Below are positions 58,770 to 64,000 of a stretch of DNA of 64,000 nucleotides, in pieces. The translations under genes were made by a program, and so were the position numbers. The notes beneath the pieces were generated by a model, which saw only the letters and a program-made list of their open reading frames with translations, had not been told where the DNA came from and ran no database searches. How positions within the stretch are numbered: the stretch's first letter is position 1; every line of letters begins with the position of its first letter. Source of the DNA: a virus. The stretch lies in IMG/VR virus record IMGVR_UViG_3300035681_000001, positions 64,001-128,000 of that record. One strand, written 5' to 3'.

Positions 58770-58905
58770 GAACGATACCAGTTTACTACGGGGCTAACCC
58801 AAAAAGAAAAAAAGAATAGCCAAAATTACGTAAAAAACCAAAACCCAAAACCCAACCCAAAACCCCCACTTAGGGTTTAAAGCCCAGAATAGGAAAACTA
58901 AGTGG

Positions 58906-59043
58906 AAAAATCCGAAATGGAAAAAATGGTGCGCGGGAAAACGTGAAATGGATTAAAGATTAAAAAATCCGAAATTTGGAAAAAATGGTGCGCAGGAAAA
59001 TCTGGTAAAAACCGAAATTTGGAAAAAATAGTGCGCGGGAAAA
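58906..59043. repeat. Three imperfect direct repeats of about 37 bp in an A-tract region
   Basis: 58906-58941, 58963-59000 and 59007-59043; consensus AAAAA(T)CCGAAAT(TT)GGAAAAAATRGTGCGCRGGAAAA. Confidence 0.9.
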
Positions 59044-60977: not shown

Positions 60978-61073
60978 ATGGTCAAATCTACTTTCGGCAA
61001 CTTTATAGCCGTACGTCGCCGTGAGCGGCGTAAGAAGCTGTGGGCTACCTTTAAGAGGTGGTTGCGCAAGTAA
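60978..61073 (+). CDS. 31-aa arginine-rich peptide (N-antiterminator-like motif; absent from the track)
   Basis: GGAGG RBS; MVKSTFGNFIAVRRRERRKKLWATFKRWLRK fills E7-E8. Confidence 0.75.
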   Translation: MVKSTFGNFIAVRRRERRKKLWATFKRWLRK

Positions 61074-61904: not shown

Positions 61905-62282
61905 ATGTTCAACTTTCGTGCCCGTGCTGCCAAGCCTACTTCCACCCCCATGGAGGCAGTGCTTGCTCAGCAAGCGGCAGATGCTGCCGGTACTGAAGCC
62001 GCGTTGAAAGACGCGGTTTCAGTAAAGAAGCAGGCCGTGTTGCTTCGCAATGCGGCAGTAGACGCAAAACGTCTGCGGGTTGAGCTATTAAAGGCTCAAA
62101 AAGTGCAGGCTGAGGCTTGTGCTGAACTGGTCTTAGCAGAGCAAGAGGTATTTGATCTTCTTAACGGAGGGTTGGATGCTCTTACTCTGCAGCAACCAGA
62201 GCAGCCAATGCCAACGCCGCCTCCACTGCCAGTGATCCAACCACTAGCAGTGGAGGACTACTTCCCTCCTAAACTTAACTAA
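61905..62282 (+). CDS. Coiled-coil protein, paralog B (125 aa)
   Basis: Shares STPMEA, LKDA, LLRNAAxDAKRLR and VQAEACAELV with paralog A. Confidence 0.8.
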   Translation: MFNFRARAAKPTSTPMEAVLAQQAADAAGTEAALKDAVSVKKQAVLLRNAAVDAKRLRVELLKAQKVQAEACAELVLAEQEVFDLLNGGLDALTLQQPEQPMPTPPPLPVIQPLAVEDYFPPKLN

Positions 62283-62294
62283 AATTAAGTAACT

Positions 62295-62318
62295 AAGCCC
62301 CTTAACGGGGGCTTTTTT
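62295..62318 (+). terminator. Array element E11
   Basis: AAGCCCCT-TAAC-GGGGGC-T6. Confidence 0.85.
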
Positions 62319-62321
62319 GTA

Positions 62322-62389
62322 AGCTTTAGCTTAACCAATAAGAGCCGTTGCTCTGGCTGTGTATCGCACAGGTTGGTTAAGTTAAAGCT
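62322..62389 (+). ncRNA. Candidate three-way-junction structured element
   Basis: 17-bp closing stem with one G-T pair (62322-62338/62373-62389) enclosing AGAGC-CGTT-GCTCT and CTGTG-TATCG-CACAG; no ATG-initiated ORF in this unit. Confidence 0.65.
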
Positions 62390-62474
62390 GCACCCCCTAA
62401 ACGTGCTAGCACATACGGGGGAAACTACTACTACTTATTAGTACACGGGGGCAAGTTTATAACCTTAACGTACA

Positions 62475-62527
62475 TCCGGAAACGGGGGTTTTTTTGTCCT
62501 GGCAATTCAGCTAGGCGTTAACACCCA
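62475..62527 (+). terminator. Array element E12 (degenerate first hairpin)
   Basis: TCCG-GAAA-CGGGGG-T7-GT-CCTGGC-AATTCA-GCTAGG-CGTTAACACCCA. Confidence 0.7.
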
Positions 62528-64000
62528 TGGTTAAAATGACCCGCACCCGCCGCCAAGCAACTGCAGCTAAGGCTGCACGCATCAAAGCCTCCCAAGTTAA
62601 AAGTGCACGTCGTGCACTCCAGTTGCAATTTGACTACTACAACTTTGAATTAGTAACTGCAGGCAAAGCTGCGGTTGCATGGAACGAATCTGGAAAAGCT
62701 ACACCTATAAAATTTGTTACCGGTACCGGTACCAGCCAAGCTTCTGGTTGGTACCAAGAAGCTTGTACCAAAGCTGCTGCGGTAGCAGCGGAAGCTGTTG
62801 CTAGAACAGCACGTAAAACTGAACAAGCGGCACGTGCTCCTTGGGAGCAGCTTTGGGTGCTGCTTAAAGCTCAATATGGGCTGCAATTCAGTATTACTGC
62901 TGCTGAGTGGGAATCCCGGCAGTTAGATGCTGCTAAAGCTAAAGCTTTAGGACTTAGGTCTCCTAAACTTTCAAAAGCCCTAGTAGCTTTAGGGGTACCT
63001 ACCTCAGAAGTCTCCTTATTGTTAGGAGCTACTAAAACGGCGGTAACAGCTGCCGCAACTAACACAGACACTTGGGTGTCTAGTGATCTTAAAGACCTGT
63101 GGGATCAAGGCAATTCTAAACACTACTCAAGCTGTCAAGCTACTGACAGCCGTGCGGCTTGGGGTGGTGATACAAATTGGTGTGACATAGCTGCAGAAAC
63201 TAAGCACCTAGGTCAGCACCTGTTCTTATGGCTAATAGGCCAGAGGATGTCCATAGATGGCACCGGTTTTACGGCACGTGCTAAATTACGCGTGCTGTAT
63301 TATGACGAGGAGGCTACCGAGATAGCTGGTCTTTACATAGACCGCCCTTACGGAGCAGCGAGTACGTTAAAAGCTGGGTTAGCTCAGCTAGCTGAGTGGT
63401 GGGCTACTCGCAGCCACACTCCTATCTTTATGCCCACTACGTGGGAACGCCGAGACGGTGCCGGCAATGACTTTCAGTACCAATATGGTGGGCTACACGA
63501 GGAAAAACTATATTCACCCTCATCAACCTCAGGCTACCAGGACACCTGCACGCAGGGTGCCGGACCTTACGACTTTATGGTGCCAGTAGCACAACACGGC
63601 AGCCTTATACGGCGTGCTTTTACCGCACGTCCCAAAGAAGGTAACGTGTACCTACTGCCCCTAGCAGCAGTTAAGTACAACCCTCAAACTGATAAGTTTA
63701 CGGTACCTAAAGTGGCTACTAGGTCAGCACGGAGGCCTATTACGGAATCCTACCGCTATGTACGTAGTTTAGCTGTCAGCCTTGGGCTAACCGACTTTAA
63801 ATATGTTGGACAACAAGGAGTCGGCTATGGCACTCCTACCACTATTTACCAAGCAGGTAGTTATAAGTTTTTCGTCAACAAGAACTTAATACAACTAACT
63901 GATGACATGGGCCACACTACATACTGTGAGTGGGAAGAAGGAAGGCTGACAGTAAAAGAAGGTAATGTAGAATTAGGCTTAGTAATATCACAATCCTTAC
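62527..64000 (+). CDS. Hypothetical protein (at least 491 aa, runs off the window; absent from the track)
   Basis: ATG 62527 (or 62536); manual translation stays open to base 64000 (MVKMTRTRRQATAAKAARIK...). Confidence 0.8.
   Translation, partial: MVKMTRTRRQATAAKAARIKASQVKSARRALQLQFDYYNFELVTAGKAAVAWNESGKATPIKFVTGTGTSQASGWYQEACTKAAAVAAEAVARTARKTEQAARAPWEQLWVLLKAQYGLQFSITAAEWESRQLDAAKAKALGLRSPKLSKALVALGVPTSEVSLLLGATKTAVTAAATNTDTWVSSDLKDLWDQGNSKHYSSCQATDSRAAWGGDTNWCDIAAETKHLGQHLFLWLIGQRMSIDGTGFTARAKLRVLYYDEEATEIAGLYIDRPYGAASTLKAGLAQLAEWWATRSHTPIFMPTTWERRDGAGNDFQYQYGGLHEEKLYSPSSTSGYQDTCTQGAGPYDFMVPVAQHGSLIRRAFTARPKEGNVYLLPLAAVKYNPQTDKFTVPKVATRSARRPITESYRYVRSLAVSLGLTDFKYVGQQGVGYGTPTTIYQAGSYKFFVNKNLIQLTDDMGHTTYCEWEEGRLTVKEGNVELGLVISQSL

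Follow-up and report, generated by a model that had tools for sequence, protein, structure and literature searches.

In an array of phage modules that usually carry one small gene each, what does a unit without a gene deliver? The question arises in a 189,763-bp uncultured virus record (completeness estimate 96%) that carries myovirus-like giant tail-module genes, and of which we studied bases 64001-128000 (64,000 nucleotides, hereafter the window). On the + strand, ~59.1-65.1 kb of the window is an array of 14 modules built in a common order: a C-run/G-run hairpin, a T6-7 tract, G(T), a second small hairpin and, usually, an RBS and a small ORF. The second hairpin (~20 nt) starts at the G that follows the T-tract, or a few bases from it. 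The gene-free unit sits just ahead of a block of larger genes and at the changeover from tiny early cassettes to a conserved block that leads to the polymerase-helicase gene.

The array is headed by a divergent gene-free region that contains three ~40-bp direct repeats (window 58880-59040; core GGAAAAAATGGTGCGCGGGAAAA), which may be an early control region or origin. By analogy with Ma-LMM01, where ten early genes (gp054-gp063) adjoin 42-bp tandem repeats, the array is probably the early region of this phage; temporal transcription control in the Ma-LMM01-like lineage is unexplained (PMC5780444). A sigma-70 promoter scan over the 6 kb of the array returned one site, against 4.5 expected, and none inside the modules, which are too tight to fit such a promoter. 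The terminator hairpins of 13 modules have predicted energies of -7.8 to -21.4 kcal/mol, and that of the gene-free unit -4.2 kcal/mol; six of the array terminators have GAAA loops. One + strand cassette (window 60978-61073) encodes a 31-aa peptide that includes RRRERRKK and has a basic amphipathic tail at its end. RRRERR is likewise the core hexapeptide in the arginine-rich motif of lambda N; a phmmer search of the PDB with the peptide found no relative.

The initial annotation of the gene-free unit had described two arms that pair directly after the T-tract through 16 Watson-Crick pairs plus one G.T and enclose two perfect 5-bp hairpins with TA, GG and G as linkers. Each of these details was borne out by the sequence, with the arms at 62322-62338 and 62373-62389. 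The 17-nt core stem (94% complementarity) extends outward via GTA/TGC to give the full basal helix (Table 1), whose non-Watson-Crick pairs are one G.U and one U.G. The helix starts on the base after the T-tract (G at 62319), which is the slot of the ~20-nt hairpin in the other 13 units, and on the simplest reading the junction is an enlarged form of the small hairpin that opens every unit. We also agree that the unit is without an ATG-initiated ORF: a search of 62319-62526 turned up neither an ATG nor a credible frame on either strand. A hidden small ORF was rejected in six frames, both here and in the sister phage described below, and indels between the two shift the frames. The unit is nevertheless larger than first described, since it reaches the T7 tract, and 62319-62500 folds at z -3.95. 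The proposal that a junction takes the place of a gene as the cargo thus stands in part: there is a folded element and no gene, but a near-invariant ~110-nt tail comes after the junction, which is therefore not the whole cargo.

Table 1. Features of the gene-free unit and its borders (window coordinates).
Feature	Position	Strand	Details
Left border: terminator hairpin and T6 of the upstream small gene (61905-62282)	62295-62318	+	Hairpin -10.1 kcal/mol; T6 at 62313-62318
Three-way junction	62318-62392	+	Basal helix 62318-62338 with 62373-62392, ~21 bp, one bulged A
Variable interior	62339-62372	+	34 nt, 56% GC; tetraloop hairpin and pentaloop hairpin
Hairpin A	62341-62354	+	5 bp, loop CGTT
Hairpin B	62357-62371	+	5 bp, loop TATCG; alternative form with 6 bp and a 3-nt loop
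Hairpin P4	62393-62421	+	C5 (62393-62397) with G5 (62417-62421), small GTG/CAC tip; no T-tract after it
Conserved, mostly unpaired tail	62422-62474	+	(ACT)4, TTATTAGTACAC, orphan G5 run 62447-62451, AT-rich stretch
Right border: weak terminator-like hairpin, T7, GT	62475-62497	+	Hairpin 62475-62486, 4 pairs, loop GAAA, weakest terminator of the 14 modules; T7 62489-62495
Next unit: ordinary post-T-tract hairpin, GTTAACACC motif, start of the 613-aa gene	62498-62538	+	CCTGGC 62498-62503 with GCTAGG 62510-62515

Folded as RNA, the 91-nt junction stretch had a minimum free energy of -37.2 kcal/mol (z -5.25), and 0/200 shuffles were as good. No second copy of the stem arm is present in the genome (189,763 bp), and of the loop-spanning inverted repeats at 58-64 kb the one it forms is the longest; as the arm does not recur, a repeat or MITE family was ruled out. 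ARAGORN found no tRNA or tmRNA gene (0 in the window and 23 related loci).

We explored whether the fold is conserved in one close relative (the sister phage), which was reached via the 613-aa gene downstream of the unit (cluster P0001/P0057) and from which two contigs (L078 and L079) were read. The 613-aa genes of the two phages are 91% identical as protein, 93.7% as DNA and 90% at four-fold sites, with identity per 50 codons running from 85% to 99% in a mosaic. The sister element (L078:601-680) lies in the equivalent place, directly 3' of TTTTTTGT. Its 3' arm is identical at 17/17 positions and its 5' arm at 15/17; the two 5'-arm changes weaken the outer stem and are not compensated, and the wobble pair is kept. 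As there are just two independent alleles, the basal helix offers no pair-by-pair covariation.

Inside the arms, the sister interior (39 nt, 69% GC) has no alignable similarity to the 34-nt interior here, and other copies of either interior were found neither in the genome nor in the fetched loci. An inversion switch was excluded, as reverse-complementing our interior does not give that of the sister, which has no match in this genome on either strand. The sister element is predicted to fold into a tetraloop hairpin (CCAG) followed by a pentaloop hairpin (CGAGU) inside the basal helix, at -35.7 kcal/mol (z -3.31); its counterpart of hairpin B has 4 bp and a 5-nt loop. Because the unrelated interior again folds into two hairpins, the three-way topology is kept across a complete replacement of the interior. 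When random genomic interiors of the same length were used instead, two or more hairpins at equal or better energy were obtained in 0.15% of cases for this phage and 0.25% for the sister; composition-preserving shuffles of the interior reached the same in 0.35% and 5.4%, respectively. Structural conservation in relatives, whose absence the initial annotation would have taken as a refutation, is thus found in the sister phage. Our main new result, as read from the predicted folds of the two alleles, is that it is the shape of the junction tip, and not its sequence, that is conserved between sister phages.

Downstream of the junction, the unit tail (62393-62497, ~100-110 nt) has only two differences in the sister: the C5 run is shorter by one C, and a T to C change at 62475 converts a U.G pair to C-G and strengthens the weak hairpin. 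The 62422-62474 segment is 100% identical, where the four-fold sites of the adjacent gene give a neutral expectation of ~10% divergence. As gene identity is mosaic, the conserved tail could mirror recent recombination rather than selection. The same mosaicism could account for the tail if the element were non-functional; i.e. a decayed cassette that has lost its ORF, with a quasi-palindrome mutating by template switching and with orphan terminator halves remaining (three G5 runs but a single C5 run). The ACGGGGG orphans at 62415-62421, 62445-62451 and 62482-62488 do look like the 3' arms of array terminators, and cassettes are demonstrably lost from the array by recombination (see below). Yet in the same stem two GC-rich interiors of unrelated sequence each form two hairpins, the tail is more conserved than four-fold sites, and the element is kept beside the 613-aa gene while its neighbours turn over. 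We regard a decayed remnant as quite unlikely.

The turnover of the neighbouring cassettes is seen on both sides of the gene-free unit and the 613-aa gene with which it remains. Upstream, the sister has a gene with no relation to ours and without a homologue in our genome. On the 3' side of the 613-aa gene, the sister is without our 191-aa cassette (L080:1060-1164 against window 64369-64454 and beyond); here homology stops exactly after TTTTTTGT and resumes with the leader of the next cassette. Cassette exchange relative to the sister phage involves whole units, with T-tracts as the borders. A variant of the phage itself (L075; JGI 3300033978) has lost ~2.4 kb of cassettes, everything between two modules, at a junction that joins genome positions 123433 and 125835 (window 59433 and 61835). 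This loss is attributable to recombination between repeated terminator/hairpin modules. The PeSL cassettes of T4-type phages provide a parallel, in that small genes are flanked one by one by stem-loop modules, nearly identical to each other, which contain a sigma-70 early promoter and are where indels break (PMC2839356, PMC4122927). The array shares with them the repeated terminator borders and the indel breakpoints, but is without the sigma-70 promoter; moreover, PeSL cassettes carry ORFs rather than folded RNA.

Other assemblies of the same phage were also compared. The small flanking protein was found on 17 contigs and has no homologue outside this phage. Ten of the 17 contigs were read and showed no change in the element, which is uninformative since they are 99-100% identical. 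The only two variants among these 10 other assemblies are both in 62295-62318, with none in the junction.

To which strand and molecule does the fold belong? As RNA, the + strand gave better z-scores than the - strand in both phages (-5.25 and -2.21 here; -3.31 and -1.37 in the sister), since every non-Watson-Crick pair is a G.U on the + strand. The same pattern is seen in the 62498-62515 hairpin, which belongs to the following unit: there are two one-sided substitutions in the sister, and six pairs are kept via G.U on the + strand only. The preference for an RNA role expressed in the initial annotation is upheld by these comparisons, and the pairing patterns indicate that the element very probably acts at the RNA level. 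When DNA energy parameters are used instead, the two strands fold almost equally well (z about -5.9). A structure at the DNA level, be it the suggested T-shaped ssDNA signal or a cruciform, is thus weakened by the + strand RNA bias and is the less likely option, but given these near-equal DNA folds it keeps some probability.

A DNA-level signal would be a cruciform or a T-shaped hairpin on one strand, used as a site for recombination, replication priming or as a hairpin promoter, with N4 virion-polymerase promoters and variable-tip attC sites as models. Integron attC sites have a variable terminal structure at the tip. The arms GCTTAAC/GTTAAGT fit the attC core consensus RYYYAAC/GTTRRRY (a match with a chance of ~1% per arm, as a rough estimate rather than a computed value), and the conserved inverted arms fitting R''/R', the swapped and branched tip and the cassette-array context all resemble attC. 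However, the element is present once per genome and not once per cassette, the other 13 junctions being without it; it has no extrahelical bases; and the cassette breakpoints are at the T-tracts and not in the element. Nor did the genome, 96% complete by estimate, give a match to a PF00589 tyrosine recombinase, which removed an integron or att site from the candidates, or to a PF00078 reverse transcriptase, which removed a retron msr/msd. With no integrase, a single copy and breakpoints elsewhere, the element is not an attC site. An N4-type hairpin promoter (5-7 bp and a 3-nt loop, kept from one promoter to the next) was likewise rejected, as the 6-bp/3-nt-loop form of hairpin B is not kept in the sister and there is no second copy in the genome. 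The wobble pairs would turn into A.C mismatches on the other strand, and GC skew shows just a shallow minimum around 58-62 kb, which tracks gene orientation. Overall, a signal in the DNA is a long shot.

The explanation that we prefer, tentatively, is that 62319-62497 is a cis-acting structured RNA leader, or a stability/processing module, for the 613-aa gene. In this proposal we infer the transcription of the unit, its 5' end, the read-through and the nuclease or protein partner. The RNA would begin, or be cut, at the post-T-tract G, as in the other array units. Its first bases would be locked at once into the ~21-bp helix, and the paired 5' end would shield the message from 5'-end-dependent RNases. 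A two-turn dsRNA helix is a classic substrate of host RNase III, and the element could for that reason set the half-life of the downstream message or how it is processed. The pair of small hairpins would merely cap the helix compactly, which would leave the interior free to change in sequence while its shape is kept. The weak terminator at the end would let RNA polymerase run on into the 613-aa gene, which is what would make the unit the structured leader of that gene, and the near-invariant tail would carry any sequence-specific signal or partner site.

Several observations speak for a leader with this tentative role: the strong non-random fold, the junction kept in the sister, the + strand bias, the slot that the junction occupies, the weakest terminator of the array, the linkage to the 613-aa gene, the conserved tail, and gene-free leaders ahead of distant homologues (see below). 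Counterpoints are the two 5'-arm changes that weaken pairing, the mosaic identity between the two phages, the near-equal DNA folds of the two strands and several relatives (L053, L054 and L099) without a leader. Additionally, a capping role alone fails to explain the wholesale interior swap between 94%-identical genomes. The helix, with 21 pairs and one bulge, can be compared with the at least 20 bp of nearly perfect dsRNA that define an RNase III site; that of the sister is the same apart from two 1x1 mismatches. A phage-encoded RNase III was rejected, as none was found in the genome by a search that did find the domain in the control genome of Synechococcus elongatus.

Phage early mRNAs are known to have 5'-terminal stem-loops and RNase III processing hairpins, as in the T7 early region and the T7 gene-10 leader. 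The element resembles these leaders in placing a stable helix near the 5' end of a message and between early genes, in a length (~21 bp) that suits RNase III, and in that shape counts more than sequence. It differs in having a two-hairpin cap rather than a simple loop or bubble, a 110-nt conserved tail and an array with a terminator for every gene; cleavage or stabilisation is, here, a proposal.

We next consider more distant phages, whose 613-aa homologues are 32-47% identical. These phages have the same hairpin/T-tract/hairpin grammar, each with its own consensus. That of L054 is GGCAGGC, T8 and then ATTCTCCTACATGCTTAG, with the RBS (AGGAGAA) as the 3' arm of the second hairpin; the intergenic consensus of L055 and L056 is GGCCCTTTTATTTA. 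Two loci (L052:1-138 and L101:1-246) have in common a three-hairpin gene-free leader ahead of ~40%-identical 613-aa homologues, with at least one compensatory change (GCAG/CTGC versus ACAG/CTGT). In a 221-kb relative, a 677-nt gene-free and strongly folding stretch (L055:9258-9934) lies directly 5' of the homologue, and L056 has a 199-nt structured gene-free stretch ahead of its own; no leader was found before the homologues in L053, L054 and L099. A candidate three-way junction before the L056 homologue was rejected as too weak (-12.5 kcal/mol, with an alternative fold preferred).

The junction itself was not recovered elsewhere. A covariance model of the two alleles was run over 280 kb of related loci, with the distant relatives above and the early region of Ma-LMM01 among them, and recovered no sequence but its own; one weak match (L059:1518-1591) was rejected because it folds no better than shuffles. 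Exact-pattern scans of IMG/VR and GTDB genomes with the arm and the tail gave chance matches in coding DNA or none, a terminator/T-tract motif scan of IMG/VR gave 37 unrelated single matches, and protein-guided locus searches gave only ~35%-identical relatives without the element. In the gp063/gp062 gap of Ma-LMM01 (L102:4511-4567), we observed a perfect 11-bp hairpin and a perfect 15-bp hairpin side by side, without a T-tract.

Rather than leading into the 613-aa gene, the RNA might stand alone: a small RNA of ~175-180 nt in its own cassette, ending at the T7 and acting in trans, either by base pairing via its (ACU)4-rich unpaired tail or as a protein sponge or decoy. The borders of the unit are those of the protein-coding cassettes (T-tract and GT to hairpin and T-tract), array cassettes are gained and lost as units, there is no ORF, and the tail is single-stranded and invariant. 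Set against this are the terminator, which is the weakest in the array, and the results of the target and family searches. No significant antisense target was found in the phage genome (best, 15/16 nt, E 4.2). The Rfam search proposed as a check came back without a family at threshold: three scans of Rfam 15, including lax filters on 260 nt, gave terminator-like scores of 10-20 bits against thresholds of 41-127, and nothing covering the junction on the + strand. Nothing specific points to the protein decoy that the initial annotation had mentioned. We consider an independent small RNA rather unlikely.

The setting amongst 14 terminators raises a further explanation, that the element is a cis-acting antitermination site, either put-like (the RNA binds polymerase) or nut-like (the 31-aa peptide binds the RNA), that would allow polymerase to cross strong terminators ahead of the longer downstream genes. 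The unit is placed just before those genes, and the RRRERRKK peptide is encoded 1.3 kb upstream. A precedent is offered by the put RNAs of HK022, which measure ~70 nt, contain a pair of stem-loops and come right behind the early promoters in an operon rich in terminators (PMC9378689); EAR and Tn916 canT are related RNA antiterminators (PMC9378689, PMC11658703). The element is like put in size, hairpin number and terminator-rich early context, and a put-like action would explain expression of the genes downstream. In put, however, conserved bases contact the zinc-binding domain of polymerase and there is no long enclosing stem (PMC9378689), whereas the hairpins here are inside a 21-bp stem and differ in sequence between the sister phages. 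Antitermination is weakened because put and boxB depend on specific bases, and here it is the two hairpins whose sequence is not conserved.

In lambda nut, boxB is a 5-bp stem with a GNRNA pentaloop beside boxA. Hairpin B does have 5 bp and a pentaloop, but its loop is UAUCG (CGAGU in the sister); none of the loops (CGUU/UAUCG here and CCAG/CGAGU in the sister) is a GNRA-like boxB loop, and no boxA common to both sister phages was found. The likeness of the peptide to lambda N is, moreover, one that we presume, with no solved relative returned by phmmer. Taken together, antitermination of either type is decidedly unlikely. There is an outside chance that the element is instead a recognition or antitermination module of an undescribed phage transcription system, a branched structure in the RNA or in template-strand DNA, placed exactly at a start point that follows a hairpin/T-tract. 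Its shape might then be read by a putative phage giant polymerase-like protein or by the arginine-rich peptide, with the swappable tip setting specificity, and it might redirect transcription, away from the tiny early cassettes and towards the block with the polymerase-helicase gene.

A three-way junction is also a feature of phi29 pRNA, which varies in sequence across phages while its secondary structure is kept (PMC12670572). In both cases a helix formed by the 5' and 3' ends meets two hairpin arms. However, pRNA belongs to small protein-primed podoviruses and forms a ring via complementary loops, whereas the element is found in the early-array locus of a 190-kb phage and the loop pairs contain no 4-nt complement in either phage.

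From the sequence comparisons, the element is best classed as a variant of phage non-coding leaders or small RNAs, with a putative function, and not as a new kind of system. It identifies an array cassette as an RNA-type element, where the early region of a phage is commonly treated as an inventory of small uncharacterised proteins. A Y shape that is kept while the sequence is exchanged is a signature of structure-dependent function, caused by selection or by the mechanism that generates it. If the element does control mRNA stability, processing or read-through, it would provide a handle on the timing of expression in bloom-associated cyanophages and a new RNA motif for the catalogues. If it is merely a 5' cap-like stabiliser, it would be an ordinary, though neat, example.

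Finally, we examined the 613-aa gene that the tentative leader would serve. Its true start is probably ATG 62536, which is common to the sister, where the listed ATG 62527 is absent; no Shine-Dalgarno sequence was found before either. The 613-aa protein has no Pfam match. Its AlphaFold2 model is poor (pLDDT 56), and the only fold matches are GNAT-like at E ~0.1, which is unusable. The conserved core of the protein (residues ~120-400) is also present in T7-like cyanophages, e.g. Pf-WMP3, PP and LPP-2. In one assembly (L050/L071 compared with window 63031-63093), a 63-bp deletion is present in the gene, which is called there as ORFs of 174 and 373 aa.
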